A stretch of 64,000 bases of DNA, taken from positions 203,341-267,340 of the forward strand of contig KE561047.1 of NCBI GenBank assembly GCA_000442015.1, in the 5' to 3' direction. Below, one piece after another: positions 9,131-53,025 of the stretch. This DNA comes from Rozella allomycis CSF55 (taxonomy: Eukaryota). The notes below the pieces were generated by a model that made no database searches, was not told the origin of the DNA, and worked only from the letters and a program-made list of their open reading frames with translations. The position numbers and the translations under genes are program-made. The first letter of the stretch is position 1. Every line of letters starts with the position of its first letter.

Positions 9131-9548
9131 ATGAAAACATCGACTTAGTAGAACAGGTTTCGTCGGTAAGCATTGTTTTTAACTAATAAATACATCACTA
9201 TTAAAAAATGACTTTCTTTTTGACAAGGCTACTATTAGTATGCTGTATGTGCCACACACAATCTTGACTGTTCAGGGTAACCCAAGCATGCCGTATTTGA
9301 ACTGACATAACAAAATTGCAATTTTAATTTTTAATATACCCTGTAGATATAATGGCTGCCGCTGTTTACAGCAAAATTATGCATCAGAATTCACATGATT
9401 GTTTGCCCATGTATTTCTATTTCTACCTGAAAAGAATGCATACAAACAATTCATTTAAAATTTTTAAGCATACGTCTTTTGATATTTGTTTACACTTTTT
9501 TCTAGCCTATAAATAGAGGCAATTACACACCCTGGTTCAATTTCGCAC

Positions 9549-12500
9549 ATGTCTGCTGAAGGAAAACGAAGCGGTTCTGCGGAGAAAAAGGGAGAAGATA
9601 ATGAATCTGGGTCCAATAACGTTCCAGTAGAGGCAATTCCACTCGACCCTAGGGTGGATTGGTTCTCTGAACGTGTATTGACCTCTCTACGTTTGAAAAC
9701 TGAAAAATGGAAGAAGATGACCACTGTCAAAGAGAGTGCGTAAGATGATTGATTGATATATAACTCATAGAGAGGCAATAGTCCAGTTTATGGACCAGAT
9801 TGATGTCCCAACCCTTTTGTTTACGGTTAACGCCAAGGAGGAAATAGTGCCATGCACTAGGTTTCCCGAGGTGTTAAAGAAGAAATCAATATATTTTATG
9901 AAAAAACCCAAGGCACCATCACCATTGGTAGCTCCTTTTGAACAGTACTTGATTTGGGGTGAGGTGCCTGCTGCTCCATTGGAGTTTTTGGCTACAATGC
10001 TGGATGAGATCTATGGACCTATGCTAGTCAATCCAAAGAATCTTGAAACTTGGCCTCAAGTTGTAGCGCATGATATGAACAATCATTTCCATCAGCTTCA
10101 GAGCAATGTTTACGTTATTGCTGGTCAAACAAAGGTAATGAAAATGAGTGTAATGAAGTAGGGAAAAACTTTATTGCCCATCCCACAAAACATTTTTAAT
10201 GAAGCTGGAGAAGTTGTGTTGGAGAAGAATGTTCTTCATACTATCGAGTCTGCAGTTATTGAATGGACTCATCAAATCCACATTGTTGTTAAAAGTAATT
10301 CGGCGAGTTTGAATGAAGATTCTAATCCTGGGCCGATGGTTGAGATTGAGTTTTGGGCTGCCAAGTTTGCTAATTTAAAGTCCATCTCACAGCAGCTTAA
10401 TTCAGAAAAGATACAAAAGGTTGCAAAGATATTGGAGGAGAGCAATTCAACGTATTACCCTGCGTTCCGTGGAATGTGTGACAAGGTGTCTAATGCATTG
10501 GATGAAGCTCAAGATATCAATACCTATTTGCAGGCTTTTAAACCGCACGCTGAGAGACTCAATGGTGTGTCTGAGTTTGCTGAGATTGCTAATGTGTTGC
10601 CTGCATTGTTTCATGTTGTTGGAATGGTTTGGAAATTGAGTCGTCATTACAGTAATCCGACCAGAATGCAAGTGTTGATTCATGAGCTCTGTAATGACAT
10701 TATTGAACAAGTAACATGAATGGCCTTTTGATGATGTAGGCAAGAACCTTTATCCAACCTGAAGATTTGTTTAAGAATCCACCAGAAGAGGCGTCATTAA
10801 AGTTGAAGACTGTTTTGAGAAAGGTTGAGTTGTTTAAATTTCTGTATGATGATCAATGCAAGAAGATGGTTGAGATTGATAAGCCATGGAATTTTGATAC
10901 CCGTTTGATATTCTTTAGAATGGATGGTTTTTATGAGAGAATAGAGAATATTTTGGAGCTTTTTGATACGATTGCAGAGTTTAATAGGTTGGAGAAGATT
11001 GAGATTGGAGGATCAAAGGGAAAAATCTTGAGTTCACAAATTGTTCAAATATTTACAGAATTTAGTTTGGCGTTGGCAAATTTAGCAAAAATTAAATATG
11101 ATATTTTGAATTTGAAGACTGAAGAGTTTGATATTGATTTGAAAAAGTTTCATCGTGTGATTGAAGATTTGGATAAACGTCTTGGGTAAGATTGTAGTGA
11201 TGATTAGAGTAGAACTGTGTTGTGTCAAGCATTTGATGATTGCTGTGGATTGATTGGTTGTTTCAAGTTGTTGGATACATTTTCTGGATTGTTGAATAGG
11301 GAACACATTCAGAGAGATTTTGAGAATAAATATTTTGACTTGTTGAAGATGTTTGGAGAGGAGATTGGAGTTGTTACAGGAATGTTTTTGAGACAGAGGG
11401 AGAATCCGCCAATCCACTATAACATGCCACCGATTGCAGGGGCCTTAACATGGACACATGAATTGAAGGACAGATTGACTAAATCAATGGAGAAATTAAC
11501 AACGGTAATAAACAAATTATTAATGAATGATAGTTTACGCATCCAATTTTGACAAGTTCAGAGGAGGCTATAATAATGCGTAAAAAGTATCAAGAAGTGT
11601 TGGAAATGATGGATCAACATGAGCAGGGAGTGTATGGCCATTGGTCTGGCAATATTGTTGATGATTCAGAGGAGAATTTAGGAAAGCCATTGTTGTTTAG
11701 AGATGAAAAGAATTTGCTTAAAGTTAATTTTGATCCAAAGGTTGTTGCACTGTTAAAGGAAGTCAAATATTTTAATGCGCTGACTGTTCAAGTGCCAGAG
11801 AAAGCTTCTAATGTGTATTCAAAGCAAGAAGAGTTGAGAGAGTTTCAGTTTAATTTGGAGTTTATAGTGAATCAGTACAATACAATTCAAACAACAATGT
11901 TACAAGTTGAGCAGCCGTTAATTCAAAGTAGACTTGAGGCTATTGATTCTCAATTTGAAGATGCCTTGAACAGAATAAGTTGGAAGAGTTCTGAGATTGG
12001 AGAGTATATAAAGTCTATTGGAATAAGTGTTGGAAATCTTGCTAATATTCAAAAGAATATGAAGAGCAATGTGGATCAAATCCAAAAGATTATGAAGAGA
12101 TGGAACAATGCACCATTGATAGAAAGAAAAGATACGAGAAAACCATTGAATGTTGATGAAAGAGATAACAAGTTGAATGCTACTTATGAGCAGATTAGAC
12201 AAGATGGAGAAAATATTCATAAACTGATTCAAGAAACGTTGAATATTTTACAAGTTGATCCAGAAGGAGAAGCATGGAAGAATTATTTAATTTTTGTTGA
12301 TAATATTTTGTTGGCTGGATTGCAAGAAACTGTAAAGACTTCATTGCAATATTTGTTGAACAATATGGATCAAGAATATTTATCAAACAATGAATTGTAT
12401 TCTTTATTTGAAAGTAAATTGGAGCTTGGCAGCAATGAACTAATATTTACGCCTCCAATGGAAGAAGAAGTATCAAATGGGTTCATGTCAATTATTCAAG

Positions 12501-15500
12501 CGTTGTTGTCTGATATTTACAAGATTAATAAATTGATTAAACCAGTCACTGGAAAAGATGTTGATTATATGATTGCTGTTACTGCTAGCAATGAATTGGA
12601 AGAAATGAGAAGTCGCATTTTAGATAAAGTTCGCCAAGTGTTGGAAAAATGTCATGAATACAAAGAAACGTTTGATCAGTTTGCTTATCTGTGGATTGAG
12701 AACAGACAAGATTTCTTGAAACAATTTGTTAAACAATTAAAGCAAAAGTTTGTGCAAGATGGATCTCCAGAAGAAGATTTTGTTGCTCCATTGTATCTGG
12801 ATCAATTTGAACAGCAAATTAAGAAATATGAAGATATTCACAAGACTGTTATGAGTTTGGAAGGCGATGTCACATTTTATGGCTGGTTTAAGATTGATGC
12901 CAAGCCACTGAAGCAAGCGTTGAATTTGGTAGTAAAGAAATGGTCGTATACATTGTCTAAATATTTGAGTGATGAGACAATAAAAACGTTGAATGAATTG
13001 AATTCGTTTATTAAGAGCACCAAGAAGGGACTGCAAGTGAAACCAGTTGAGGGTGATTATAGTGCGCTTGTGGCATCGATGGGATTGTTGTTGGCAGTGA
13101 AGCATAGATCGTCAATTGATAATTTGTTTGAGCCGCTGAGAAAGACTGTGAATTTATTAAAGCATCATGGAGTAGATACACCAGAAGAAGTGTTTAAATT
13201 TCTGAGTGATTTACCTGAAGAATGGAGTGATGTGAAGAAGATGGCTGTTGCGATGCGTGATTATGTAGCACCTTTGCAAGCACAAGAGGTTGATTCATTG
13301 CAAAAGAAGTGTAACACGTTTGAATACAAGATGCATTTGTTTAGAGAAGAATTTCGCAACAAGGCGCCATTTAAGTTTGATGTTGGGATTGAAAAGTGTT
13401 ACGAGTTGATAGATCAATGCCATGTTGATGTTTTGATAATTGAGAGTGAAGCAGCTGCAATGAAGTCGTCGGCTGATTTGTTTGAATTGGTTATACCGAG
13501 TTTTAAGCAGTTGGGAGATTGTAGAAGGGATATTGGAATGTTGAAGAGTTTGTGGGATTTGATTTCAATGGTGACGTATTTGTTTAATGAGTGGAAATCT
13601 ACGTTGTGGAATCAAATTGATACTGATGCGTTGGAAATCAGGTGTAGAGATTTGATGAAAGAGTTGAGAAAATTTGACAAGGAAATTAAAGGTAACTTTA
13701 CAATGTTTATTTAATATAGGTAATGTTGAAACTGGTTTATTATTAAAGGATGGGATGCGTTTAATGGATTGGATCAGATGGTGAAGGATATGATAACATC
13801 GTTGAGAGCAGTTGGAGAATTGAGAAGCAATGCAATTAGAGACAGACATTGGAAACAGTTGATGAAGACAACTGGAGTGACATTTACTTTAACAACAGAT
13901 ATGAAGTTTCAAGATTTGTTGAGTTTGCAGTTGCATAAATATGAAGATGATGTCAAGGGGATTGTGGATAGAGCTACGAAAGAGTTGAGTATGGAGAAAG
14001 TGTTGGGAGAGTTGGAAAAGACTTGGAATGTTATGGAATTCACCTATGAAGTTCATGACAGAACAAAAACACCCTTGTTAAAGTCATCTGAAGAATTGAT
14101 TGAAATATTGGAAGACAATCAAGTGTTGTTGCAGAATATGATGACATCAAAGTATGTTGCTTATTTCTTGGAAACAATTTCCAAATGGCAGAATATTCTG
14201 TCTACAGTTGATACAGTTGTTACGTTGTGGTTGGAAGTTCAAAAGACGTGGAGCCACTTGGAAAACATTTTCATTGGATCTGAAGACATTAGAACTCAAT
14301 TGCCAGAAGATACTAAAAGATTTGATGGAATTGATTCTGATTATAAGAAATTAATGGCTGAAGCATCGAAAACACCAAAGACTATTGAAGTTTGTTTGAA
14401 ACCTTCGTTATTTGAAACTTTGGAATCTTTGCAAGGTCAATTAGCGTTATGTGAAAAGAGTTTGGCTGAATATTTAGAAACAAAGAGACTTGCATTTCCA
14501 AGATTCTATTTCATTTCTAGCAGGTAATTTACTAAATAAGTGCTTAAATAAAGTGATTTGTTGGATATTCTAGCTAGAGGTAATCAACCACAAGCAGTGG
14601 CTATTCATTTACCAAAATTATTTGACAATTTAGCTGGCTTAAAGTTTAAAGGCGGCGCTGATTCTAAAACAGCTATTGGAATGTTTTCAAAAGAAGATGA
14701 ATATGTAGAGTTTTCAGAAGAATGTGAATGTGTTGGACCAGTTGAAGTTTGGTTAAACAGAGTTGTTGATGTAATGAGAAAGACATTGCGTCATTTAATG
14801 TCAGAGGCTGTTGTTACTTATGAAGAGAAGCCGCGTGAACAATGGCTGTTTGACTATCCAGCACAGATTTCTCTAGCTGGAACTCAAATTTGGTGGACAA
14901 CTGAAGTCAATGCTGCTTTTGCTAGGCTAGAAGAAGGCTATGAAAATTCATTGAAAGATTATTACAAGAAACAAGTTAATCAATTAACTGCTTTGATCAC
15001 TTTGATTCAGGGTGAATTAACTAAAGGGAATAGACAAATGATTATGACTATTTGTACGTTGGATGTTCATGCGCGTGATATTGTGGCAAAATTGATTTCT
15101 GAAAAGGCTGATAATGCTCAGTGTTTTAATTGGCAGTGTCAATTGAGATTGAAATGGGATGAAGAACAAACTGATTGTATTGCCAATATTTGTGATGCTT
15201 CGTTTCGTTACTCTTATGAGTATCTAGGAAACACTCCCAGACTTGTTGTGACTCCATTAACTGATAGATGCTACATTACATTAACACAATCTATTCATTT
15301 AATTATGGGTGGTGCACCTGCTGGTAATTTAATTCGTTATGATTGTAATTAAAGGCCCTGCTGGAACAGGAAAGACAGAGACTGTTAAAGATTTGGGTAG
15401 AGCATTAGCTATTATGGTGTATGTGTTTAATTGTTCAGAACAAATGGATTACAAATCTATTGGAAATATTTTCAAGGGATTGTCACAGTCTGGCACATGG

Positions 15501-18500
15501 GGCTGTTTTGATGAGTTTAATAGAATTGCTGTTGAAGTTTTGTCTGTTGTTGGAACTCAAGTTAAATCTATTCAAGATGCATTGAGAGCTAAAAAGAAGA
15601 GATTTGTATTTCAAGGTGAAGAAATTAGTTTATGCAAGACTGTTTCTTACTACATTACAATGGTAAGTAGAGGTTTAAAACTTAAATAGAATCCCGGGTA
15701 TGCTGGTAGAGCAGAGTTGCCTGAAAATTTGAAAGCATTGTTTAGACCTTGTTCAATGGTTGTACCTGATTTGCAAATGATTTGTGAAATTATGTTAATG
15801 GCTGAAGGGTTCCTGGAAGCATCAACGTTAGCAAGAAAGTTTACAACGCTGTATAGATTGAATAGAGAGTTGCTTTCCAAGCAAGATCATTATGATTGGG
15901 GTTTGAGAGCTATTAAATCAGTTTTGGTTGTTGCTGGTGGGTTGAAACGATCAGAACCAGGTGTTAATGAAGAACATGTTTTAATGAGAGCTTTAAGAGA
16001 TTTCAATTTACCCAAAATCGTTACAGATGATTTGCCAGTCTTTAATGGATTAATTTCTGATCTGTTTCCTAAAATTGATATTCCAAGAAAGAGAAATGAA
16101 CAGTTTGAAGATGATATTAGAAAAGCTACAATAGAAAGTGGATTGCAAACAGAAGAAAACTTTATTCTCAAGGTTGTTCAATTAGAAGAATTATTAGCTG
16201 TTAGACATTGCGTGTTTGTTCTTGGTAATGCTGGAACTGGAAAAAGTCAAGTTTGGAAAACGTTGGCTAAAACTTATAATAACATGGGCAAAAAGTGTGT
16301 TTATTCTGATTTGAATCCAAAAGCTGTTACTACTGATGAACTCTTTGGGTGTATTAATCCAGCTACACGTGAATGGAAAGATGGTTTGTTTTCCACTATA
16401 ATGCGCGACATGTCTTCTATTCCCAATACTGATCCCAAGTGGATTGTTTTAGATGGTGATATTGATCCCCAATGGATTGAATCTCTAAATACTGTCATGG
16501 ATGATAATAAGATACTCACACTTGCTTCTAATGAAAGAATTCCATTGAAACCGCACATGCGATTGTTGTTTGAAATTAGTGATCTGAAATATGCAACACC
16601 TGCTACTGTATCCCGTGCTGGTATTCTGTACATTAATCCAACTGATCTTGGTTGGTCTCCGTATGTTCAAAGTTGGTTGGAAAAGAGAGAAGATGCCGCT
16701 GAAAAGAGTAATTTAACTGTCCTGTTTGATCGCTATGTGAACCCTTGTTTAGATGTTATTCATTCAAAAAGATTTAAATGTGCTCCCGTTGAAGATTTCA
16801 GCATGGTACAAACACTCTGCTCCATTCTAGAAGCATTACTAACTCCAAAGAATACTCCCAAAGGTTGTGACAAGGAATGGTTTGAAATATATTTTGTGTT
16901 TGCTGCTGTGTGGGCATTCGGTGGTATAATGTATGCAGACACGATGGTTGACTACCGTGTCGAGTTTAGTAAATGGTGGAACACGGAATTCAAGCTGGTA
17001 AAGTTTCCACCAACTGGCACTGTTTTTGATTATTATGTTGACAATGAAACAAAGAAATTCATGCCGTGGGCTGATAAAGTTCCCTCTTTTACTTTTGATC
17101 CTGAAGTGCCGCTGCAAAATGTTCTGGTTAATACTGTTGAAACTTATAGAACTAAATATTTGCTGGACTTGCTGGCTGATAATGGGAAGCCTGTGTTGCT
17201 GATTGGACCAGCTGGTTCAGGTAAAACTGTGCTTATGCAAGACAAACTGGCTCAGTATGGCGAAGACAGGATGATTGTTAATATTTCATTTAATTTTTAT
17301 ACAACGTCCTTGTCGTTGCAGCAAGTGTTGGAGAAGCCCTTGGAGAAAAAGGCGGGAAGGAATTATGGACCCCCTGGTCAGAAGAAGTTGATTTACTTTT
17401 TGGATGATTTGAATATGCCTGAAGTTGACAAGTACGGGACAGCGCAGCCGCATACTATACTGAGACAGCATTTGGATTACAAGCATTGGTATGATAGAAG
17501 CAAATTGACGCTGAAAGAAATACACAATTGCCAATATGTAGCATGTATGAATCCAACTGCTGGTAGTTTTACGATTACTTCAAGGTTGCAAAGACACTTT
17601 TCAACGTTTTCTGTGAATTTTCCTGCAATGGAATGCCTTACGACTATTTATAATAGCATCTTGTCGCAGTTTCTGAGAGGGTTTGGAGAGAAGATTAATA
17701 AGAGCTGTGATAGACTTGTTAATGGAATTATAGCGTTGCATAAAAAGGTAAAATTAGTTGGCATTGATTAGAAAGGTTGCGTCTGTGTTTTTACCGACGG
17801 CTGTTAAATTTCATTATGTGTTTAATTTGCGAGACTTGTCTAGTATAATCCAGGGGATATTGTTTGCGCAGACGAGTGTTATAAAGGAGCCTATTGATTT
17901 AATTAGACTGTGGTTGCACGAAAGTACGAGAGTTTATGGGGACAAGCTGGTTAATGCTGATGATAGAAAGGCGCTGAGTGCGATACAGGCGGAGATTATA
18001 AAGAAATCGTTTGAAGAGATGGACCAGAAGAGTGTGTTTGCAGAGCCATTGGTGTTTTCGCATTTCGCTGGTGGGTTGAGTGAGCCAAAGTACATGTCGA
18101 TCAAGGATTGGGCGTCGTACAAGAAGATACTAGAGGAAGCGTTGGAGCAGTATCAAGAAGCGAATGCCGCGATGGATTTGGTGTTGTTTGAAGATGCGAT
18201 GAGCCATATATCGCGAGTGAGCAGGATACTAGAGTCACCGAGAGGAAATGGACTGTTGATTGGAGTTGGTGGCAGTGGCAAGCAGTCTTTGGCTAGATTG
18301 GCGGCGTTTATGAGTGGCAAGGATATCTTCCAAATAACGTTGAAGAAGGGGTACAGTAGTGCGGATTTGAAGTTGGATTTGGCCATGTTGTATCAAAAGA
18401 CTGGAATTAAGAAGCAGGGGGTTGTGTTTCTGTTGACTGATTCGCAGATTGCTGATGAGAGATTTTTGGTTTTGATTAATGATTTGCTTGCTAGTGGGAA

Positions 18501-21500
18501 TATTCCTGGACTGTTTCCGGATGAAGATTATGAGAATATTATTAATGCGATGAGGAATGAAGTTAAAGCTTTGGGACTTATTGATACGAGAGAAGCTTGT
18601 TGGGATTTGTTTATCAAGACTGTTAGAAAGAATTTAAAAGTAAATTGAATTTAAATGTTTAAAAAAGGTTGTGTTGTGTTTTAGTCCAGTTGGAAGTGCA
18701 TTGAGAAACAGATGCCGAAAGTTCCCAGCAATAGTTAATTGTACAATGATAGATTGGTTTTCGGAATGGCCGCAGGAAGCATTGTTGAGTGTAGCGCAGA
18801 GATTTATTGATAATTGTGATTTGGTGCCCCAAGAGTTGAAAGAGAGTGTTACAAAATTCATGGCGTTTGCGCATCAGAGTGTGAATGATGTGAGCAAAAA
18901 GTATTTGGAGAATGACAAGAGATACAATTATACAACACCCAAGAGCTTTTTAGAGTTGATTAATTTGTACAAGATAATGTTGGAAAAGAAGTCTACAGAG
19001 TTGCTGTCTAGTATGGAGAGATTGGAGAATGGGCTGGCTAAATTGCAGAGCACGGCGTCGCAGGTTGATGATTTGAAAGCAAAGCTTGCGAGCCAGGAGG
19101 TTGAATTGAGAGCCAAGAATGAGGAAGCTAATAGATTGATTGAAAGGGTTGCGATTGATACAGAAAAGGTTAATAAAGAAAAAGCTATTGCTGATGAAGA
19201 GGAGAGAAAGGTTGATGCGTTTGCAAAGGAAGTAGCAGAGAAGCAGCGCCAGTGTGCAGAAGATTTGCGGGCAGCTGAGCCAGCATTGGCAGCAGCAGAG
19301 GAAGCGTTGAATACATTGAACAAGGCTAATTTAACAGAACTGAAATCATTTGGATCGCCAACAGATGAAATTAAGAATGTAGTGGCGGCTGTTATTGTGT
19401 TGTTGTCTCCACCGGGAAAGATTGCCAAGGATAGATCATGGAAAGCTGGGAAAGCAATCATGGCCAAGGTGGATCAATTTTTGGAAACATTGATTAAATT
19501 TGACAAGGAGAATATAGACAAGAGTAATTTAGAGGCATTGGCACCGTATTTGAGTGATCCCAATTTCAATACAGAGTTTATAAAGACAAAGTCAGCGGCT
19601 GCAGCTGGGCTGTGTGGATGGGTGATTAATATAGTAAAGTATTTTGAAGTTTACTGTGATGTTGAGCCCAAGAGGAAAGCGTTGGAGCAAGCTAATTTGG
19701 ATTTGAGTGTAGCGCAGAATAGACTGGCAGAGATTCAGAATAAGATTATGGAGTTGAATAAGAATTTGAGTGATTTGAAGGCTAAATTTGAGAAAGCGAC
19801 GGCTGATAAATTGAGGTGTGAAGAAGAAGCAAAGAGAACGCAGGAAACTATTATATTGGCTAATAGGTTAGTTGGAGGGTTGGCGTCTGAGAATGTTAGA
19901 TGGGCTATTTCTGTGGACAAGTTTAAAGAGCAGCAGAAAACATTAACAGGTAATTTTAGTAGGTTTGATTTAATTAGGTATTTTAATAAACTTTCTATGA
20001 TGATTAGGTGATGTGTTACTAGCAGCAGCGTTCTTGTCTTATGTTGGATGTTTTACCAAGAAATATAGAACAGAGTTGATAACAGAGAAATGGTTGCCAT
20101 TTTTGAATGATCCCAGCAACAATATTCCCATGAGTTCTGATATTGATGCATTGAAGATATTGACTAATGATGCAGAGATAGCCAAGTGGTGTAATGAAGG
20201 GCTGCCGAATGATAGAGTGTCATTAGAGAATGCGACTATTTTTGTTAATTGCAAGAGATGGCCATTGATTATAGATCCGCAGTTGCAGGGGATTAGATGG
20301 GTGAAGAATAGAGAAAAGAATTTGAGAATAGTGAGACTTGGACAGAGAGGGTATTTGGATGTGATTGAGAAAGCAGTGAGTTCAGGGGATGTAGTGTTGT
20401 TGGAGGATATTGGTGTTAATTTGGATCCAGTGTTGGATGCTCTAATTGGAAGGAATACGATTAAAAAGGGAAAGTATATAAAGATTGGAGACAAGGAAGT
20501 TGAATATGATTCAAACTTTAGATTGATACTGCAAACGAGAATAGCCAATCCACATTATCCACCTGAAATACAAGCGCAAACTAGTTTGATTAATTTTACA
20601 GTGACGATTGCAGGGCTGGAAGATCAGTTGTTGGCTGATGTTGTTAATTCAGAGAGACCAGAACTAGAAAGAACCAAGGCAGAGTTGACTAAACAGCAAA
20701 ATGAATTCAAGATTAAATTGACAGAGTTGGAAGATTCGTTGTTGAGTAGACTGAGTGCAGCAGAGGGCAACTTTCTTGGTGATTATGCGCTTGTGGAGAA
20801 TTTGGAAACGACCAAGAGAACAGCGACAGAGATTGAAGTGAAAGTGGAGGAAGCTAAAAAGACTGAAAAGAAGATTAACGAGACGAGAGAGTTGTATCGA
20901 CCAGTGGCTGCACGGTCGTCATTGTTGTATTTTCTGTTGAATGATTTGAACCAGATTAATCCAATGTACCAGTACTCGCTAAATGCGTTTAAAGTTGTGT
21001 TTCAAGCTGCGATTAATTCAGCTGAAAAGAGTGAAGAGTTGAAGGAGCGTGTGTTTGCGTTGATTGACAATATAACATTTTCAGTGTTCAAATATACCAC
21101 TAGGGGGTTGTTTGAAAGAGATAAATTAATCTTTGTGACTCAAATGACGTTTTCTATATTGAAGCATCAGAATGATATAGATTTGGAGCAATTAGATTTT
21201 CTGTTGAGAGGCCCAGTGATATTGAATGTGAATAGTCCTGTTGAATGGTTGAATAACAATTCATGGGGGATGGTCAAGGCATTGTCTAATTTAGACTCAC
21301 TGAAGATTCTAGCGAGTGATATTGAGAATTCATCAAAGAGATGGAAAAAGTATTGCGAACATGAATCACCTGAAAATGAAAAGCTTCCACAAGAGTGGAA
21401 GAACAAGACTGCTTTAGAAAAACTTTGTATTATTAGAGCATTGAGACCTGATAGATTAACTTATGCTGTGAGAAATTTTGTTAAAGAAAAGATGGGCACA

Positions 21501-23414
21501 AAGTATATTGACAGTACAAGAGTTCCATTAAAGATTTCATTCCAAGAATCATCACCTGGCACTCCAATCTTTTTTATTTTATCCCCTGGTGTTGATCCAG
21601 TTAAAGAAGTTGAAGAATTGGGATTAAGTTTGAATTTCACTGAAGATAATGGAAAGTTTTATAATATTTCACTTGGACAGGGGCAGGAGGTTATTGCTGA
21701 ACAGAAATTGGATTTGGCGTATAAAGATGGTGGATGGGTCATGCTGCAGAATATTCATTTGACTGTCAAGTGGCTCCCTACATTGGAAAAGAAATTGGAA
21801 TCGCTCAGTCAAAATAGTCATCCTGATTTCAGAGTGTTTTTATCTGCTGAACCAAGCGCTGATCCTGCGTTCCATGTTATTCCAACTTCCATTCTCCAAT
21901 CTTCAATCAAAGTAATTGAATTTATTCTTTTAAACATTTAGATTACAAATGAACCGCCAACTGGAATGAATGCTAATATTCACAGAGCACTAGACAACTT
22001 TAAACAAGAAACACTGGAAATGTGCAGCAAGGAATCTGAATTCAAAACTATTCTATTCTCTCTTTGCTACTTTCATGCTGTTGTTTTAGAAAGAAGAAAG
22101 TTTGGCACACAGGGTTGGAATAAAGGGTATCCATTCAACACTGGTGATCTAACAATCTCTGTTAATGTTCTCTACAATTACCTTGAAGCGTCAGTCAAAG
22201 TGCCATGGGTTGATCTAAGATACATTTTTGGTGAAATCATGTACGGTGGTCACATTTCTGATGTAATTTAAACTATTATTCTAAATGTAGGATTGGGATA
22301 GAAGATTGTGTTCAGCTTATTTGGAAACATTTGTCAATGAACAGCTATTTGAAGGCGCAATGGAGTTCGCTCCTGGGTTTCCTGTTCCACCACCAAGCGA
22401 CTACAAGGAATACCATCGCTACATTGACGATCAACTGCCTCCTGAAACACCTTATCTATACGGTCTACATCCAAACGCTGAAATTGATGTATTGACTAAA
22501 ACTGCCGACAAGCTGTTCAAAACTATCCTTGAAATGCAACCACAAGAAACAGCTGGCGGCTCTGTTGTGTCAAGAGAAGAAAAAGTTAAACAGATTTTAG
22601 ATGATATTATTGAACGGTTGCCTGAATCATTCAACACTCTTGAAATGATCGCCAGAGTGGAAGAGAGAACGCCTTACATTTCAGTAGCTATCCAGGAATG
22701 CGATAGAATGGCTATTCTCACTAATGAAATCAGACGGTCTTTGAAAGAACTTGATTTGGGACTTAAAGGGGATCTCACAATCTCTGAAAACATGGAATCA
22801 CTAATGAATGCAATGTTCCTGAATGAAGTACCAAACAATCTCAACTAATATAATAGGTTCCTGAATCATGGAAGAAGATGGCTTACCAATCAACATACGG
22901 TCTCGCCCAATGGTACGCCGACCTCCTAACCCGCATCAAAGAACTAGAATCATGGGTCTCTGAATTCCAGCTCCCATCCGTCGTCTGGCTCTCCGGCTTA
23001 TTCAATCCCCAGTCATTCCTCACAGCGATCATGCAAACAACAGCCAGAAAGAACGAATGGCCTTTAGATAAAATGACGCTCAACGTTGACGTCACAAAGA
23101 AAACCAGAGAAGAGTTCAACGCACCGCCACGAGAGGGAGCGTACATTCATGGGCTGTTCATGGAAGGCGCTAGATGGGATACCGCGTCTGGTATGATCCA
23201 GGAATCGCTGTTAAAGGAACTCACACCATCTATGCCCGTTATTTATGTCAAGGCGGTGACTATTGATAAAAAGGATACAAAGGGCGTTTATGAGTGCCCG
23301 CTTTATACTACAAAGACTAGAGGACCCACTTTTGTTTGGACTTTTAATTTGAAGACTAAAGAAAAACCGCAGAAATGGACCCTGGCGGGAGTTGCTCTTT
23401 TATTGTCAATTTAA
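9549..23414 (+). CDS. Axonemal outer-arm dynein beta-type heavy chain (DNAH9/11/17 class), full length
   Basis: DHC_N1/N2, AAA1 [13 protein letters not shown]2 [11 protein letters not shown]3 [11 protein letters not shown]4 GVGGSGKQS, stalk, C-terminal [10 protein letters not shown]; about 14 intron positions join the ORF pieces. Confidence 0.95.
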
Positions 23415-23493
23415 ATAAACGTGATGAAGGAATTTTAAAATTTTCAAGTTTATCTTTATAAAATGCAAATTTATTCATTTCGTTTATTTTCGT

Positions 23494-24801
23494 TTATTGC
23501 TGCATTCTGGATGTGGCAGATTGAGTTAATTCCCTTTTAATCTCCTTTGAAATCAAATAATGCTCCTTTTTGCCAGCAAGACTCAATAGAACCTCCTTTT
23601 GTTCATCTGTTAAATCATCCTTGTATCTAATCAACCAAAACATAATCAAACAACCTTTGACAAAACACTAGAAACGCTTGATGCCACAGAACAGGCAATT
23701 CACGAGAATCATTCGCAAATCTCGCAAAATGATACACCAATGAATCAATAACTTGGAACGGCATCGCATATTTCTTGTCCAAAAGACATTTAATAAATAT
23801 ACTACATGCTGGTGAATAGTCCATCTCGGCAAGTTTCAGTAAAGCTGCACTGGAATGCAACACGGGAATGCTCACCTTGGTTATCACGGAGCCTACTATT
23901 GTCGCCTCACGCAGTGTGCATTGGTCTTCAACTAACGGGAGTATGATACCCTTGAAAAAGGCCGCTGGCTTGTACACTGATTTCTTTAAGGCATTGTATA
24001 AATGCACGTTAAGTTTTGATGTTTCTTTAATATTTATACGCACATGTTCAAGCAAAATGTTGAAATAGAATCTATTCATCAAATACGTAATAAATTACAC
24101 TTGGGACATTCTGGCGTTCAAGTTGGATGCGAATATTCTTGTGGCTTCATAGACAGCATGCGGTGTCCATTCCATCGGATTAGTTAAAGCCAGAACAGAT
24201 TCCCTGCTGAATGCAAATCAACATTATTACCAGTTCTTTAATGAAGGAATAACCTTGAAAGCTTTGGGCAATTTGCCGCTTTTATATCTAGACAAGAGCA
24301 GCCCAACTTTGGAGTAAACTTGGACTATCTTTGGATGCAGATTTGAATTCTTGGCAGCCTCAGTCTGTGGCAAATTGATTCTATCGACCAACTGGTCAGC
24401 CTGGATTCCACTCACAAACTGGTTGAATATTTGCTCCTCCTGTGGATCTATTGTATTCGCATTTTCGTCTTCATAGTCACTCCATTCGTCATCAACTTCA
24501 TTGTCACTGTCCACGGCCATTGTCGATTCAAACACGGCCGGCATCTCCATCTTGTCTTTTGATGATTTATTTTCTTCGTCAAAAATTTCTTCTTGCTGTT
24601 TCTTTACAGCCTTCATTATTCTTTTTGATGTGACGGCGTCTATCTAGAGTTTCGTTTTAAAGAATTTGGTACCACATTTTCTTCCAAATCGGAATCAGAT
24701 TCTTGGTTTTTGGTTTTATTCTTCATTGTGACATATGTATCACGCTCTAACTGGGCCTGCAAAGGAGGCAAACGCTTGGAAGAAGATTTGCGAATTTTCA
24801 T
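23494..24801 (-). CDS. ENP1: Bystin / Enp1
   Basis: [52 protein letters not shown]. Confidence 0.93.
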
Positions 24802-24813
24802 TATTACAGGGGT

Positions 24814-25235
24814 ATGCACGGGTGCAGCTTGGAACCAGCTATTTTTGCACATTTGAGCTGCAGAAACGGTAGGAGAAGGTTACTGGCAAAGTAAATGTAT
24901 TAAATTGGGTTTAAAAAGGTACGAAAATTATGTTTCTTGGAAAGCAGAGTTTTACCGATTACGCTCAACGAACCTATTGCGATTGAACTAGCTATAAATG
25001 AAAAAAAGAGATCGATTTTAATTTGTGATACTTCATTAATTGAAAATGGTTTGTTGGAAAATGAAGTCTACTTCTTTATTGGTGATGTTGATTGGGTAGA
25101 AATTTTGAAAAAATATTCTAGGAAAAAAGATATTTCAATATCAAAGTTGCGAGAAGAGTAAATATTAAATGGCCAGATGATGTTCTTGTTTGGCAAAAGG
25201 TAGCATCAAAGGTCCTTCACTATGGAAATTCTTAA
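24814..25235 (+). CDS. Small OB-fold-like protein, possibly TEN1 (CST complex)
   Basis: Spliced ~110 aa: MHGCSLEPAIFAHLSCRNGRRRLLAKVLPITLNEP...ILICDTSLIENGLLENEVYFFIGDVDWEKRYFNIKVARRV...; resembles the Ten1 pattern by eye only. Confidence 0.4.
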
Positions 25236-25856: not shown

Positions 25857-26015
25857 TTAATAAAAATTTCTTCACACAAAACAACTGTTTTCTATCGTGA
25901 TCATTTTNGGGCTACAAATTTTATCTTTTAATATAATTTTATAATCGATTGCATAATAATTAATATAATTTTATAATCGATTGTATACGTTTTAAGATTC
26001 GCTACACTATGGGAN

Positions 26016-28043
26016 TAATGCAATAGAAGGAATATTGAAGAGATTGAATATGGAATATGCGCATGAATATACGATTCCTGTTGAATTGAAGAAAGTATAT
26101 TCGAAGTGTGACAGTCCAGTGATAGGGAGTCCGGAGCACCAAGAAATGAAAGATGTACCATACAANAAGAGTGTAGACGATGTTGTTAGATATATTGAAA
26201 CAAAATATAAAATAAATTTATTAGGAAAGATTAACTGGTTCTTGGGAAAAGGAATTGAAAGAGATGGAAATGAATTGAGAATGAGTCAAAAGAGTGCAAT
26301 AGAAGGAATATTGAAGAGATTTAATATGGACGATGCGAATGAATATACAATTCCTGTTGAACTGAAGAAAGTATATTCGAAGTGTGACAGTCCAGTGATA
26401 GGGACTCCGGAGCACCAAGAAATGAAAGATGTACCATACAGACAAGCAGTCGGAAGTTTGATTTATTTGGCGAAGTGTACAAGACCAGATATAGCATATG
26501 CAGTGAGTCTTGCGAGCAGATTCTTATCGAATCCAGGGAAAGAGCATTGGTTGTTAGTCAAGCGAATCCTCAGATACTTAAAATACACTAAAGAATATAG
26601 TTTAATAATGGATGGAATAAATGAAGATAAATTTATTTGTCAAGGATATGTTGATGCCGATNAAGTGTAGAAGACGTTGTTAAATAAATTGAAACGAAAA
26701 ATAAAATAAATTTATTAGGAGAGATAAACTGGTTTTTGGGAATAGCAATTGAAAGAGATAGAAATGAATTAACAATGAGTCAAACGAGTGCAAAAGACGG
26801 AATATTGAAGAGATGTAATATGTAAGATGCGAATGAATACACGATTCCTGTTGAACCGAAGAAGGTATACTCGAAGTGTGACAGTCCAGTGATAGGAAGT
26901 CCGGAGCACCAAGAAATGAACGATGTACCATATTGCCAGGCAGTTGGAAGTTTGATTTATTTAGCAAAGTGTACAAGACCAGATATCGCNGTAAAACCAT
27001 GCGAATCATAGTAGAAGAAAAAGAAGCAAAGTCTGGGTGCCAACCAGTTCACAAGAAGATTACCGAAGCTTTTGGTAAGAAAAGAAAATCAAGCACTACA
27101 TCTCTAAATGAACATGACACGACCACCGATGTAGTCCTTAAACCAACCAATAATGAAGTTAACTCATCCACTGAGAAGGATCTTTTATTGAAAATTTATN
27201 CGCATATGAATTAAGTCTTGCGAGCAGATTCTTATCGAATCCAGTGAAAGAGCACTGGTTACTAGTCACGCGAATTCTCAGATACTTAAAATACACAAAA
27301 GAATACCGTTTGATAACGAATGGAATAAATGAAGATAAATTTATTTGTCAAGGATATGTTGATGCCGNTAAAGGATAATGTTGCTCCACCTGTGAATATG
27401 ACTCCAGCCGCTGAAGTACCTCTAGCTGATGTTAAGACCAGATAGAGCATATGCAGTGACTCTAGCATTGGTTGTTAGTCAAGCGAATTTTCAGATACTT
27501 AAGAAACACTAAAGAATATAGTTTGATAATGAATGGAATAAATGAAGATAAATTTATTTGTCAAGGATATGTTGATGCCGATTGGGCGGCTGACAATGAA
27601 TCAAGAAGAAGTATCTTTTCAAGATAAATGGAAACTAAGTATCATGGAAAAGTCAAAGGCAAGCAACAGTAGCACTATCAACAGTTGAAGCGGAATATAT
27701 GGCATTATCAAGCGCATAGCAGGAACCATTGTGGATTAACAGTTTAATGAGTGAATGGGAGATATCTTTTGAANACATTATGGATTAAGAGTTGAATGGG
27801 TGAATTGGAGATAACTTTTGAAGCGGAATTAAGTTGTATGAAGATAACAAAGGAGCGATAGCATTGACCAAAGANTAGCAGGAACCATTGTGGATTAACA
27901 GTTTAATGAGTGAATGGGAGATATCTTTTGAAGGGGGATTTAAGTTGTATGAATACAATAAAGGAGCGATAGCTTTGACCAAGGAAACGAGCGGGAGAAG
28001 TAGGAGCAACCACATTGACATCAGGTATCACTTCATTACCGCT
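26016..28043 (+). mobile_element. Ty1/copia LTR retrotransposon pol fragments (RT C-terminus, RNase H), degenerate and internally duplicated
   Basis: PYRQAVGSLIYLAKCTRPDIAYAVS, KRILRYLK, GYVDADWA, ALSTVEAEYMALS, YEDNKGAIAL, HIDIRYHF; several partial copies separated by single Ns. Confidence 0.92.
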
Positions 28044-28598
28044 TACTTGTTATGCAAACCCGGCTATATTTCGCCCTTATGGGATTGCTAGTGTGAAAAT
28101 GAAGTGCAACAAAGCTTATCTGATGGTGTCTAGGGAAGAATCAGGGTATAAGAAGAAATCGGAAAATAGATAAACATTCCGTTACTAATCTCAACTCTTT
28201 ATAAGTTTTAATAAGTTTCTTTATTAAGTGACGAATCAGTTATAAGAAAAACCAAATCAATCCATTAAAAGAAACCACATTTATTAAAATTAAGAACCTT
28301 TGGCCTCACATTTGTCAAAACATTTCTTCATTTTTTGATCCCGAGACTTCATAAGTATGTTTTCTATCGTGATCATTGTTTAACATTAGTTTGAAGTCTG
28401 AAGATCCATGGAAAGTGTGATTTCGTCCAAAATTAAATCTATCGTTCGTGACCTTCATTTACAGTCTCCAAATCCCGAATCTATAAAAAATAAACAATAA
28501 ATTTCTTCACACATTTCTTAGCTCATTTAAATAAATTTATTCACACAAAACAAGTTTTTCTATCTTTATCATTTTTTGACATTAGTGTGATTTCGTCT

Positions 28599-28702
28599 NN
28601 NNNNNNNNNNNNNNNNNNNNNNNNNNNNNNNNNNNNNNNNNNNNNNNNNNNNNNNNNNNNNNNNNNNNNNNNNNNNNNNNNNNNNNNNNNNNNNNNNNNN
28701 NN
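28599..28702. other. Assembly gap (run of N)
   Basis: Continuous Ns. Confidence 0.99.
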
Positions 28703-28754
28703 TCACTTACCGTTTTCCAGTTTCCTCCTACGAATCCCGAATCTCAATTATCAT

Positions 28755-29496
28755 GTTGTAATAAATAAATGTGTACAAATTTTATCTTTTAATTAATATA
28801 AATTTATAATCGATTGTATACTATTTAAGATTCGCTACACTATCATGGACTCAAAAGTAGGTGTAACAAGCGATTCTTATGGCTCCAAAACGCTAATAAA
28901 AAAATAAAATAACAATTTATTGTTTTAATTTAATTTATTTATAATTAGTCACAAATGTGCCATATTAANATTTAATTTAATTTATTTATTATAATTAGTC
29001 ACAAATGTGCCATATTAATGAGCAACCCAACATGCACCTTAAAAGACATCCGCCACCTATATCTCAACAACTACCTTCACTATAGGGGTTGAAAATAAAT
29101 ATTACTTCGTATATTGGATGTTCTGAGTTCTTAGACCAAATTTGGGAGGANGTTGTCATAAATAAATGTCTACAAATTTTATCTTTTAATTAATATAAAC
29201 TTATAATCGATTGTATACTTTTTAAGATTCGCTACACTATCATGAACTCAAAAGTAGGTGTAACAAGCGATTCTTATGGCTCCAAAGCGCTAATAAAAGA
29301 AATAAAATAACAATTTATTGTTTTAATTTAATTTATTTATAATTAGTCACAAATGTGCCATATTAATGAGCAATCCAACATGCACCTTTCAAAACTTCCG
29401 CCACCTATATCTCAAGAACTACCTTTACTATAGGGGCTAAAAATAAATATTGCTTGGTATATTGGGTGTTCTCTCTTCATAGACCAAATTTGGGAG
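28755..29496. repeat. Tandem duplication of a ~345-395 bp AT-rich non-coding unit; partial third copy at ~25911-26012
   Basis: 28755-29150 and 29152-29496 align (gttgt.ataaataaatgt.tacaaatttt...agaccaaatttggga). Confidence 0.9.
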
Positions 29497-29570: not shown

Positions 29571-29724
29571 ACTCGACAACCCCCCTGGTCAGCGATGTAA
29601 ATCCCTTAAAGTGAGTGTGTATTCGAGGTGAAAATGGTGTTAACTCAACATGCCAATAATCGTTTCTGAAGTCCGGGTCGTAAACTCCCCGTCCGATAAA
29701 AAATTTAAACTGACTAGGTAGGAT

Positions 29725-31193
<1,469 letters not shown>

Positions 31194-31667: not shown

Positions 31668-34021
31668 ATGTCGAAAGCTGAAGTCCAACGAATTTATCAA
31701 ACTTCAGAGACTCAACAATCCAGACCTCGTGATTATATTTACGGTAAAAATTATTTGAATCATTGATGCAGATGGAACTTATACAGTTTCTTCTGTTAAA
31801 GATCATGTAAATCTGGTTAATAAAGCCGTTGCTCAACCTCCAGTAATTTCATTGACTCGCATTGAAAAAGAAATCATATCCGATATACGAGAACATGTTC
31901 AGCTCATTGCATCAGTATCCTTCTCACGTGAATGCCATACATCAAAGCAAAGTGAACTATAATCTCGGACTACCGAGGAATACAAGAGAGACAAGGGTTG
32001 ACGTTGGAGGAAAAGATAGATATCTGTATTTTAAGCGTGCTCTTGTACCATATCATCCCACTGTTGTATCTCAATTGATTTATGGTAGACGCCCCCAGAC
32101 GAAAGGAAAGGATCAAAAGCTAGAAAAAGAGCCGCCAACAAAAACAATCTCAATTCAGACAGTTTTTAGAGAATCTTACGCACAGACGGATCCGTTTTCA
32201 CCTGATTTTGTATTGGCCAAAGACATTGATCCAGAGAAGCAAATGCCCGAGTTGCTTTCATTAGCGTCCCTGACGTTTCAAAATGGACTTCCTGTTTCTA
32301 TCGCGGAACTTGATATGATCGAAAGAGCAAGAGCAAAGAGAGAATGGGAAAAGACACTCCCGGAAGTTGTCGATGATGAGTCCTTTGAGAGGAGATTGAA
32401 AATGATGGAGGAAATGGAAATCATAGAATGGCAAGAACGTGAAAGAGAAATTGAAAGGCTCCAGAAAATAAGATTAGATATATTGCAAAAAGTTATAGAA
32501 GAAAGAGAAGCAGAAGGTGAACAAGAGAGTGAGGAAAGATTAAAGAAGCTTTGGCAACAAAAATTACAAGAAAGAGATCATTTAAGAGAAAAAATTGAGA
32601 AGAAAAAGGTTAAACGTAAATGTGTCGTCATTTTGTTTGAATTTAGTTTTAAGGAAACTGGAAGACAAACGTAGAAAAATTAGCCAAATCAATTTCAAAA
32701 AGAAAGATATAATAGAAGATTACATGAATTATTCTTCCGAACTTTATGTCCCTAAAAAGAGAAACGGATTGCTGATGAAACAAATGCCGCCAGATGTGGA
32801 ATTTGAATCAAGCATGGACCCTTCTATTACTAACATCAAAGGTAAAATATTTAATATTATTAGAATTGACTTAAAGGCGGCGCTTCAAATAATGGTAGAA
32901 CCAAAGGTTGAGATGATTGATGAAATGCCTGTTTTGGATTATGAGTACCGAAAAGAGCTAATTTTGAAACAACAATTGGATATTTTGTCAGATATCTCGT
33001 TCCAAAAGACTAAAATACAAGAAAGAGACGAAATGCCATTGAAATGTGTTCAAAAGATTGAAAAGAAGATTGAAAGACCTCCAACACCTACATTGGACTT
33101 TGAGTAAGCTAAAAAAAATTAAATACAATAGAAATGATGAAAAAGATAAAAAGGAACAGGCTGTCTTATTACTACAAAGATATTTACGTGGTCGCTCTTC
33201 TCAGATAAAGACTCTCAGGGGTATTTTGTTATAGAGTCTAACATAGAAATGGAAAGACGATTACCTCTAATTAAAGAAATAAGAACGAGAAAGAACATAT
33301 CGGACGCTGACATCAAGCCTTTTGACAATGCCGAGATTGCAGTCGTTGAAACCAATGAGCAAGTAAGCAACTTTGCAAATAATGTATAGAAATTTCAAAA
33401 TCTTGTTGATCAAACAATTACCTCAGACTTTATGGGAAGGGAACTTGAATTTATCCAAAAAGAGCTTGTGCGCTTAAAAGAAGAACAAAAAATGGCAGCC
33501 TTAATTAAGTTAGCGGAAAGAACTCGCAGATTACGGGAGGCTGAAGAAAGCGGCAGAAGACAAGTAGAATTAGCCAAACTGAAAGAGAGGGATGAAGTTT
33601 TTAGACAAACGTTTAAAATACATCAAGAATCTGTCGATACATTCTTAGAAGACGTCATTCTTGATTCAATTGATAAAACTTCAGATGGAAATGCAAGAAA
33701 GTATGTCAGAACATATGCATCTAAACTAAACGATTTCATTGATGATACTGATAAAAAGTATATTTTCCATTTCAAAAATATAGTGAATCCAATGATGTGA
33801 CTGTAGCAAGGCTTGTTTCAAGTTTTCTTATTCCACATGTTGAAAAGGAGATAGTTAGGCGCCAAGGTAATTATTAGGCTAAACAATAATAAGTTGCCAT
33901 GCAGCAACAACCATATTTACAGGCTGCACATGAATCTATTTACAGCGCTGTCTACATGATGTCGAAAAATATAGACGATATGAATAAGGATAAAGAAGAT
34001 AAGCTATCTGATTCGGAGTAA
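31668..34021 (+). CDS. CFAP91: Cilia- and flagella-associated protein 91 (MAATS1/AAT-1)
   Basis: SRPRDYIYD, QTVFRESYAQTDPFSP, PELLSLASL..GLP, MIERARAKREWE, LLQRYLRGR, AERTRRLREAEESGRRQ. Confidence 0.88.
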
Positions 34022-34082: not shown

Positions 34083-34154
34083 TCCGCATTGGTCTAGTGG
34101 CTAGGATTTTGCGCTTTCACCGCAAAGGCCGGGGTTCGATTCCCCGATGCGGAA
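34083..34154 (+). tRNA. tRNA-Glu (anticodon TTC)
   Basis: Acceptor TCCGCAT/ATGCGGA, D-arm GGTCTAGTGGCTAGGAT, anticodon arm TTGCG-CTTTCAC-CGCAA, T-loop GGTTCGATTCC, followed by T-run. Confidence 0.96.
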
Positions 34155-34380
34155 CTTTCTTTTACGTCTTTTAACAAGACATTCACTTTATTTTTGCAAA
34201 TTTTTTTGACAGCCACATTATTTCCATTTTAATTTACAAAAGTTTTCATATATCGTATACCTTCATAATGATTAATAAAAATATGATCTGCAGTCCGTAG
34301 TAGGCTTCCTTTTTGTGAATGTTCTACTAACAAAGAACTTATTGATTCTTGATATCGGAAATTTCAGAATTTTTTTCTTC

Positions 34381-37069: not shown

Positions 37070-37984
37070 TCATGATACAGGCGTTTCTTCATTATTTTCT
37101 ACTTTTCGTTTTGGAATGACTTTTTCGAACGCTTTCCCCCAATCGCCGTCACAATCGATAACTTGTAACAATATCTCGAAAACTATACTTAATGGCTTAA
37201 AGTTTTACCTTGGTGTACGGTTAAAACTTTACTACCAGAAAGTTTTAAATATTCTCCAATTGGAAGTCTTGCAGTTGAAATGCCTTCTTTATTTGCTTTG
37301 TCAAAACATAATGATTTATGACGATTTCTATCAACGATACCCCCAATGATGTAAACAGCGTCTTCATTCAATTTATCAATAGTGTTTTCAGAATCTGCAG
37401 TTAAATAAACTATTTTATCCTTTGGGAATAGAGATGTGTATGATTCGCTCGAAAAAGACATGGTCTTACTTGAAAAAGAACTTATGTATTACTGTCCATT
37501 TGTCATGCGTGGGATAAGACTTCAATAGAGACTCTTTTGAACCACCGTTTAATGAGCATACGTGCAAATTGACCGGCTGCAAGATTTTGCGGTTTGCAGA
37601 ATAGCATCTTGAAATCTGGGAAGACAAACTTTTTATTTCCTTTCAAATCTCTTTTATGAACATACTTGTGGGAGCATGAGGTCATCAAAAGACATATCGA
37701 TGGCTATGTTAAACTTTGGCAGCTTTTGTTCTATCTTCGCCGGTTTTGGCGGTCTTTCCTCTGGATGATTTTTATAATACTCTTGTTTTTCTTTTCTACT
37801 TTATAGCATTAAGAATACCTTTTTTCTTTTCTTTTTCCTTGAGTCTCTTTTTTTCACGCCATTCCTTTTTAGTTTCCTCAAATCGTTCACGTTTCTTTTG
37901 TTTCTTCAATTGGTTTTTCGATAGTTCTTTTTCTTCTACTTTTTCTACTTTCTCTTTTTCATGCGATTTCACATCCGTAGACAT
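37070..37984 (-). CDS. TRM10: tRNA (guanine-N1)-methyltransferase Trm10
   Basis: [49 protein letters not shown]. Confidence 0.92.
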
Positions 37985-38001
37985 TATGCACAACCCCTGC
38001 T

Positions 38002-38233
38002 ATGAGTGAGTTTCTTAACCAAGAATGTAGAATCACAGTCAGAGACCAAAGGACTTTTGTTGGAAGATTAATCGCGCTAGATTATCAGAAGAATGTTATT
38101 TTAGAAAATACTCAAGAATTTAATCCAGGTAAAGAAAAATTAAAATATTCTCAAAGAGCTAAATGAAGAGCGCGAGTGTGGATGCATTATGATTAATGGT
38201 TATGATATTGTCAAATTTGAGTGTCGTGAATAA
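38002..38233 (+). CDS. Sm/LSm-fold protein (Mak31/NAA38-like); absent from ORF track
   Basis: Spliced MSEFLNQECRITVRDQRTFVGRLIALDYQKNVILENTQEF...ERECGCIMINGYDIVKFECRE*. Confidence 0.75.
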
Positions 38234-38339
38234 CATGTATGTAAATAGAATAATAAAGAGGGATGAGTTTAGTGTTCTGAGTTATCGGCTACAGTATTTA
38301 TTGGTTTCTATGGCTACACACACTGCTTTCAGCGACAAA

Positions 38340-41300: not shown

Positions 41301-41755
41301 CTTTTAATCACATGCCTTATAGAGATTCAGGAACTTTTACTTTAACTGCACAAGAAGATCTTCAGGCTTTAATGAACGATCAAATCATCAAAATACAAAC
41401 GTTGAAGAATTCTCCACTAGCTAGAAACCTAGAAGATTTAATTGCAGAAAGTGAACAAACGTTGATGAATATTAAAGAAACTTGGAACGAATGGCTCAAA
41501 GTTCAGTCTGGTTGGTTACGTTTAGAACCGATTTTCAGTTCTGAAGAAACGTCGCAACAAATGCCCCTAGAGAGTCGTAATTTTAAACAAGTTGATAAAA
41601 TATGGAGAGAAATTATGACTCAATGCTTGGAAACACCCGAAATACTGATTATGATAAAGACGCCAAATCTATTGGAGAAATTAAAGGAATGCAACTCTTT
41701 GATCGAAGAAATTCAAAAAGTACGCAACGAGCAGAATCATGAAACTCCTCAATAA
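38340..41755 (+). pseudogene. Inner-arm dynein heavy chain (DNAH3/7/12 class) N-terminal tail only; no motor domain; in-frame TAG at 39248
   Basis: IKRSIVDYVL, PVPWS, PGLKNRHW, WLKVQ..W..LEPIFSSE; ORF ends just after EEIQK, before the usual GL..YLE.KR..FPRF; 3 micro-introns. Confidence 0.65.
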
Positions 41756-52991: not shown

Positions 52992-53025
52992 ACAACTGTA
53001 CCTAAATTTACAATTTATTCATCTA

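Follow-up and report, generated by a model that had tools for sequence, protein, structure and literature searches.

The window considered here is a stretch of 64,000 nucleotides (nt) of the Rozella allomycis CSF55 genome (assembly GCA_000442015.1, contig KE561047.1, positions 203,341 to 267,340 of the forward strand), and all positions below are counted from its first letter. It carries a gene for an axonemal dynein heavy chain, and the subject of this report is an intervening sequence of that gene, 19950-20007, which consists of two intron-length units, B1 and B2, placed directly end to end. A sister case, made of the units A1 and A2, lies upstream in the same gene (Table 1). We believe that the structural reading of 19950-20007 as two unit-length introns on one site is well supported; how the two units would be spliced and how they came to stand together are discussed with less confidence.

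Table 1. Features of the dynein gene discussed in the text. A slash marks a splice boundary, in the table and throughout; "3n" denotes a length that is a multiple of three.
Feature	Positions	Strand	Length (nt)	Remarks
Axonemal outer-arm beta-type (DNAH9/17-like) dynein heavy chain gene	9513..23414	+		Identified by Pfam domains, PDB matches and the spliced model
Sister unit A1	13692..13719	+	28	GTAAC...ATAG; sister case in the dynein gene
Sister unit A2	13720..13748	+	29	GTAAT...AAAG; shares one phase-1 Gly codon site (G/GA) with A1
Upstream exon (stalk / microtubule-binding region)	18668..19949	+		Ends ...ACA TTA ACA G (last letters ...acattaacag, final base 19949), phase 1
Unit intron B1	19950..19977	+	28	GTAAT...TTAG; own donor, branch-like motif and acceptor; sequence gtaattttagtaggtttgatttaattag
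Internal AG/GT	19976..19979	+		B1 acceptor against B2 donor, followed by ATTT; zero-length exon, ratchet-point-like
Unit intron B2	19978..20007	+	30 (3n)	GTATT...TTAG; sequence gtattttaataaactttctatgatgattag
Downstream exon (AAA5/AAA6 region)	20008..21911	+		Opens gtgatgtgtta at 20008; GT GAT GTG TTA completes Gly, then D-V-L-L

The dynein gene is an intact outer-arm beta-type heavy chain of the DNAH9/11/17 group. Its frame is open from 9513, with the first ATG at 9549 and a TAA stop at 23412-23414; the standard genetic code (table 1) applies, and stop-to-stop frames reach 726 codons. Pfam finds the full series of domains from the tail to the C-terminal region (DHC_N1/N2, AAA_6/7/5/8/9, MT, Dynein_heavy), and the top PDB matches are DNAH9 and DNAH17 (E = 2.4e-174 and 1.6e-267), the closest solved structures being human DNAH9 and the bovine or human DNAH17-type outer-arm chains. 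The closest database proteins belong to the zoosporic fungi Coelomomyces, Cladochytrium, Spizellomyces, Entophlyctis and Nowakowskiella (73-76% identity), with animals at 60-65%. By chaining open reading frames (ORFs) we inferred 15 intervening sequences, 13 of them single and two doubled. Their removal leaves 13,410 nt, a multiple of three, which encode 4,470 amino acids with 0 internal stops; this model is 76.6% identical, over 2,596 columns with 3 gaps, to a Cladochytrium protein.

Across the site under study the sequence reads ...ACATTAACAG / GTAATTTTAGTAGGTTTGATTTAATTAG / GTATTTTAATAAACTTTCTATGATGATTAG / GTGATGTGTTA..., with the slashes standing after 19949, 19977 and 20007. The original prediction, made from the letters and their ORFs, described here a 28-nt GTAAT...ATTAG followed at once by a 30-nt GTATT...ATTAG, whose joint removal restores a conserved T-L-T-G-D-V-L-L; both points agree with our analysis. 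Removing all 58 nt fuses ...ACATTAACAG to GTGATGTG... in phase 1, with the Gly codon split as G/GT. In the alignment with human DNAH9 (8j07_n9) the left exon runs to residue 3377, the split codon is Gly 3378 and the right exon begins from Asp 3379; on the Pfam MT profile the left exon reaches position 310 and the right one resumes at 313. Within ±15 residues of the junction there is no gap in any of the homologues that span it (10 of 10), and the comparison with human DNAH9 and DNAH17 is likewise gap-free. The branch-like motif of B1, read by eye, is TTGAT or TTAAT.

The two units have to be removed together. If B1 alone is taken out, an in-frame TGA within B2 puts a stop 23 nt past the exon end; if B2 alone is taken out, the stop comes at 32 nt, and with both halves retained at 62 nt. 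Every partial product meets a stop within 23-65 nt. Within 19950-20007 no further GT/AG pairing is 25-31 nt long. The sole other GT...AG pair that keeps the frame, 19959-20007, was rejected: this 49-nt alternative would add three residues that no homologue has, and its length falls outside 25-31 nt. Considering that partial removal leads to stops and that the 49-nt option fails, we conclude that all 58 nt are removed and no middle sequence is kept.

The lengths of the two units acquire their meaning from the other introns of the window. A census of these, hand-curated by chaining neighbouring open frames on both strands and covering the 64 kilobases (kb) of the window, yielded 50 single introns, of which 13 belong to the dynein gene and 37 to other genes (examples are 2338-2364, 33363-33389, 44238-44264 and 62927-62952). 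They measure 25-31 nt (mean 27.84, standard deviation 1.55), and none is longer; the window shows the narrow unimodal lengths of a minimal-intron genome (50 of 50 at 25-31 nt, for the window only). Their donors are GTAA in 36 cases, GTAT in 6 and GTAC in 5, i.e., GTA in 47 of 50, the other 3 being GTGA. An in-frame stop is present in 16 of the 17 single introns of 3n length, and also in the 3n half B2. In Paramecium such stops in 3n introns are a signature of intron retention and nonsense-mediated decay, which the 16 of 17 found here resembles. Since B2 has its in-frame stop and the partial products all run into stops, each half behaves as an ordinary intron when it is retained. For R. allomycis a density of 2.5 introns per kb is reported with no intron length given (PMC8476143), and our literature search found no intron lengths for Rozella or zoosporic fungi, although supplementary files may hold them.

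Only two longer ORF-joining intervening sequences occur in the window. They are 57 and 58 nt long, both lie in the dynein gene, and both carry an AG/GTA that splits them, into 28 + 29 and 28 + 30 nt, respectively. The shorter one, 13692-13748, is the other doubled intron that the original prediction placed in this gene, and we recover it there: its AG/GT is at 13718-13721, and its exon junction, I-K-G/W-D, is contiguous with DNAH9 residues 1350-1354. A scan of the window for abutting GT...AG units with at least 40 open codons on each side returned the same two as the cases where neither half can be dispensed with and each starts with GTA. Other candidates of the scan were discarded. The pair at 2698-2751 has GTGG and GTTA as donors, and a TAG there offers the ORF a simple end; across 24891-24944 frame 0 stays open, which makes an intron unnecessary; in the remaining matches one "half" is plain exon.

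Whether an internal AG/GT in this place could be fortuitous was calculated analytically with a first-order model taken from the interiors of the 50 single introns. The probability that a 58-nt intron has AG/GT at one of the 5 places giving halves of 25-31 nt is 0.0064 (0.0021 for AGGTA), and for the 57-nt sister, with 6 places, it is 0.0077. For both long cases jointly P = 4.9e-5, or 5e-6 if AGGTA is required; among the single introns, AGGT occurs anywhere inside in 1 of 50. The two-part structure is non-random. The signals of the units point the same way: in position-weight scores (n = 50), none of the four halves falls outside the values of real introns, either at the donor or over the last 14 nt. 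B1 is quite average, at the 52nd percentile of the 50 real introns for its donor and at the 46th for its 3' region. The second-half donors score 6.05 and 4.38 bits, against a mean of -0.38 and a 95th percentile of 5.26 for 373 exonic GT sites.

These data bear on the simplest rival account, in which 19950-20007 is a single 58-nt intron removed in one step, with the donor at 19950 and the branch point and acceptor of the 3' half, and the internal AG/GT is an unused relic or a chance motif. The GT at 19950 and the AG at 20007 do bound a formally canonical intron, the signals of B2 are weak enough for its donor to go unused, and, to our knowledge, most spliceosomes have a lower and not an upper limit of intron length. 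It is difficult to reconcile this account with a central AG/GTA that is improbable by chance (joint P about 5e-5) and yet present in both long cases, or with the absence of any intron above 31 nt among the other 50. Moreover, B1 is complete and the first to emerge, and no feature of the sequence would lead the spliceosome past its ordinary acceptor. We therefore consider one-step removal unlikely.

Our preferred reading, to which we assign a probability of roughly 0.6, is that the 58 nt are two complete minimal spliceosomal introns of 28 and 30 nt with a zero-length exon between them, and that they would be removed in two steps. B1 would be spliced first, as it leaves the polymerase; considering that introns here are held to 25-31 nt and that B1 has all signals at normal spacing, this order is the most likely one. 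The excision of B1 would join ...ACAG to GTATTT and so present the donor of B2, which would then be excised by a second reaction; without the removal of B2 the message would be useless. Overall, the process would amount to recursive splicing at a miniature, 58-nt scale. Each unit is complete from the outset, and for this reason B2 could also, in chemical terms, be the first to go. Of what the original prediction proposed, the structural part, two units on one site, stands on the anatomy, the lengths, the chance test and the gap-free junction; that both internal sites are used, and in what order, we infer from the letters.

Several points weigh against this reading and should be set beside it. 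The upper length limit for splicing is deduced only from the lack of a longer intron among 50, and a deletion bias could yield the same narrow distribution of lengths. There are only two doubled cases, both in one gene. Of the four halves B2 scores lowest and is still within range, with its donor at the 16th percentile and its 3' region at the 6th. By the 3'-region matrix real introns hardly differ from exonic AG sites (mean 3.96 against 3.46), so the "competence" of the halves rests mainly on the donor and the length. In addition, a few ORF links in the census are unresolved, e.g., around 53018-53029, 43558-43566 and 29724-29728. As for transcripts, one metatranscriptome compared with 9400-23500 gave 25 short pieces from other organisms, none at least 95% identical, with no junction at any intron; these pieces speak neither for nor against the reading.

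A stronger version may also be formulated: the spliceosome would measure a fixed unit of about 28 nt, longer sequences would exist only as chains of such units with obligate zero-exon recursive splicing, and the doubled sites would reflect recent gain at AG/GT boundaries. Taken as a whole, this chain of assumptions seems to us doubtful.

Concerning the origin of the doubled introns, the likeness of the halves is the first evidence to consider. The global alignment of B1 with B2 scores 7, which is reached by 13% of 1225 unrelated intron pairs and by 31% of the 78 dynein-only pairs; the original prediction was right that the halves are not copies of each other. A1 with A2 scores 9 (reached by 4.5% of all pairs and by 13% of the dynein-only ones). 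The two first halves are closer: A1 with B1 scores 15, with 19 of 28 positions identical ungapped, ranking second among 1431 intron pairs and exceeding each of the 78 dynein-only pairs. One pair of unrelated introns scores 17, above A1/B1. The likeness of A1 and B1 could reflect a common source or chance in AT-rich sequence, and we treat it as a lead only. At eight mismatches or fewer, no further copy of any half was found in the 64-kb window except an unrelated 28-mer at 48357-48384 (7 mismatches to A1). This 28-mer, on the plus strand and outside the census, is itself intron-like (GTACA...ATAG).

One origin would be the insertion of a new unit intron at the AG/GT boundary of an existing one, by reverse splicing or another gain targeted at proto-splice sites. 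The exon junction fits it: as was predicted, it is a CAG/GT proto-splice site, reading ACAG/GTGA. The exon before each doubled intron ends in AG; among the single introns this holds for 11 of 50, and the coincidence is weakly suggestive (the chance of both is about 0.05). Considering that 9 of the 35 AGGT sites in the dynein gene are intron boundaries, about one quarter of AGGT-targeted insertions would fall on a boundary, and such an event is not improbable. The unusual likeness of A1 and B1 (score 15) would agree with a gain as well; its weight is reduced by the unrelated pair at 17, which suggests that chance may suffice. Against a gain, the window contains no other copy of either half, with 48357-48384 as the sole near-match. 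Also, only 2 of the 50 single introns have the AG/GT exon context, which argues against AGGT-targeted gain as a general source of introns here. We can offer this origin only tentatively.

The other origin to be weighed needs no insertion from outside. An ancestral intron of fungal size, about 55-60 nt, may have acquired an internal acceptor and donor as introns shrank to about 28 nt, or an old tandem duplication may have been followed by divergence. In the part of the dynein gene where the doubled introns lie, introns are rich in G and poor in C (G 49 : C 16; elsewhere 97 : 91; p = 0.0008), whereby AG and GT arise at a higher rate, and new splice sites emerging stepwise within an extant intron are proposed for fungal complex introns in the available text of PMC7138796. 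For duplication there is the A1/A2 score in the top 4.5% of all pairs. Splitting has against it that a chance internal AG/GT is rare and that the window contains no undivided long intron as a precursor; duplication, that the similarity of the halves is not significant against the dynein-only pairs, 13% and 31% of which reach A1/A2 and B1/B2, respectively. We find this pair of scenarios plausible, short of even odds. The gain at an occupied AG/GT site, suggested in the original prediction, is accordingly possible and no better supported than these rivals; splitting and old duplication fit equally well.

DNA of relatives was sought in metagenomes, where the scan gave 68 loci with a best identity of 73%. 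Four of them (L001, L002, L025 and L044) read through the site without an intron; they are distant relatives, and L001 and L002 may be transcripts, so that they do not discriminate between one unit and two. Two distant metagenome relatives read GCAG/GTGATG and ACGG/GTGATG at the site. Among ORF fragments of relatives, the best of 337 matches is 77% identical, and none comes from a close relative.

A further explanation would be an assembly or sequencing artefact, or a decaying gene. Single Ns and a 104-N gap do occur in the window (25908-29151), and the truncated second dynein fragment at about 37.7-41.75 kb might be taken as a sign of decay. The Ns are all outside the dynein gene, and this gene is intact: it encodes 4,470 amino acids without an internal stop, and its product is 76.6% identical to chytrid orthologues. 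Because the halves are not copies, an artefact of collapse or duplication is unlikely. We regard this whole class of explanations as very improbable.

If the halves are truly spliced in sequence, no recursive zero-length-exon splicing described so far would be on so small a scale, and there would be direct evidence for an upper as well as a lower length limit in a minimal-intron spliceosome. The doubled introns would then bear on the question of why intron lengths are so narrowly fixed, i.e., by a mutational deletion bias or by a mechanical "ruler". They also offer a concrete site for asking if introns are still gained in the sister lineage of Microsporidia; a recent gain, if true, would have occurred within a clade (Rozellomycota and Microsporidia) otherwise known for intron loss. 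For annotation the consequence is practical: gene callers trained on introns of 25-31 nt will split genes here unless tandem units are allowed.

Some further observations on the window should be recorded. Its G+C content is about 35%. An enolase fragment of 201 residues, encoded outside the dynein gene, is 95% identical to the enolase of Rozella allomycis CSF55, and among the 120 matches listed no other exceeds 81%; this single fragment, taken with the base composition, points to a Rozella-like origin, in the sister lineage of Microsporidia. Within the dynein gene the strand composition switches abruptly between 10162-21911 and 21942-23411 (plus strand): up to the intron 21912-21941 the third codon positions have 5-10% C and 23-37% G, and in the last three exons 17-25% C and 12-26% G, the latter resembling the other genes of the window. 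The introns show the same bias as the third positions, and for this reason the switch looks mutational rather than due to codon selection. As the composition of the dynein gene is atypical, a codon-usage score trained on it proved a poor general gene finder.

The second dynein heavy chain fragment (about 37713-41752, plus strand) comprises the tail and the linker; its DHC_N2 match ends at profile position 300 of 403, and a signal peptide peptidase gene on the opposite strand directly adjoins it. A truncated paralogue, a pseudogene and a rearrangement are all conceivable. Where the first doubled intron (13692-13748) would have its counterpart, this fragment has no intron. At 51702-54456 on the minus strand there are two adjacent MFS-type transporter frames of 476 and 439 codons, about 10 nt apart; we looked for a canonical intron that would join them and found none, and they are probably tandem paralogous genes. 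The assembly is uncertain at 25908-29151, where there are eleven single Ns and one gap of 104 Ns. A gene for tRNA-Glu (TTC) at 34083-34155 (plus strand) is the only Rfam or ARAGORN match in the window, and by Rfam there is no small nuclear RNA gene in it.

It remains to compare the doubled introns with known systems. If introns are gained by tandem duplication of an AGGT-containing segment, two similar copies are expected. The doubled introns share with this model the AG/GT boundaries; unlike its products, the halves resemble each other no more than unrelated introns do. The model is listed among the mechanisms of intron gain in the available part of PMC13685798. As members of an introner-like family, the units would be expected to recur; in this check A1/B1 is the second best of 1431 pairs, and no further copies are present in the 64-kb window, to which the check applies.

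The closest genomic setting is that of minimal-intron genomes. The ciliates Paramecium, Nyctotherus and Stentor, Microsporidia, dicyemids and myxozoans have, as far as the available texts of PMC13644364, PMC5014332 and PMC6349667 go, the same very narrow lengths below about 31 nt. In the part of PMC13644364 (2026) at our disposal, the lineages listed for introns under 30 bp are ciliates, Microsporidia, dicyemids and myxozoans, and Rozella-like fungi are not named there. A search by term found no mention of abutting unit introns in the accessible text of PMC13644364 or PMC13685798. In the literature searched, which did not extend to supplementary files and subscription journals, we found no description of such introns in a minimal-intron genome.

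Fungal stwintrons resemble the present case in the fungal host, in the two U2-type units at one intron position and in consecutive excision (PMC7138796, PMC9024468, PMC12403724, PMC5639578 and PMC5587772, as partly available). If a complex intervening sequence is understood as two U2 units at one position whose joint removal restores the frame, 19950-20007 is one. The difference lies in the arrangement: according to the accessible parts of PMC7138796, PMC9024468 and PMC12403724, the internal intron of a stwintron splits the external one at its donor, branch site or acceptor, which makes the order obligate, whereas the units here merely abut. As neither unit breaks up a splicing motif of the other, 19950-20007 is not a stwintron; it has no [D1,2]-type parse, since the donor GT of B2 is already intact after the removal of B1. 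For one stwintron-type case in Lipomyces, the same partly available literature describes excision in one step or two.

The best functional parallel is zero-nucleotide-exon recursive splicing at ratchet points, described for Drosophila Ubx and about 200 other sites (10.1101/006163 and PMC8605326, in the parts available). In both systems AG/GT is juxtaposed within one intervening sequence, the first reaction exposes, or here would expose, the 5' splice site for the second, and no middle exon is kept. Ratchet points, in the same sources, subdivide very long introns of kilobases or more and have a strong polypyrimidine tract; in contrast, the present total is 58 nt and the steps are 28-30 nt. A further difference is that both units here are complete from the start, which would permit either order, and that the case is known from DNA sequence alone. 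By analogy, we presume that the doubled intron would work like a ratchet point while standing outside that class as it is defined by long introns.

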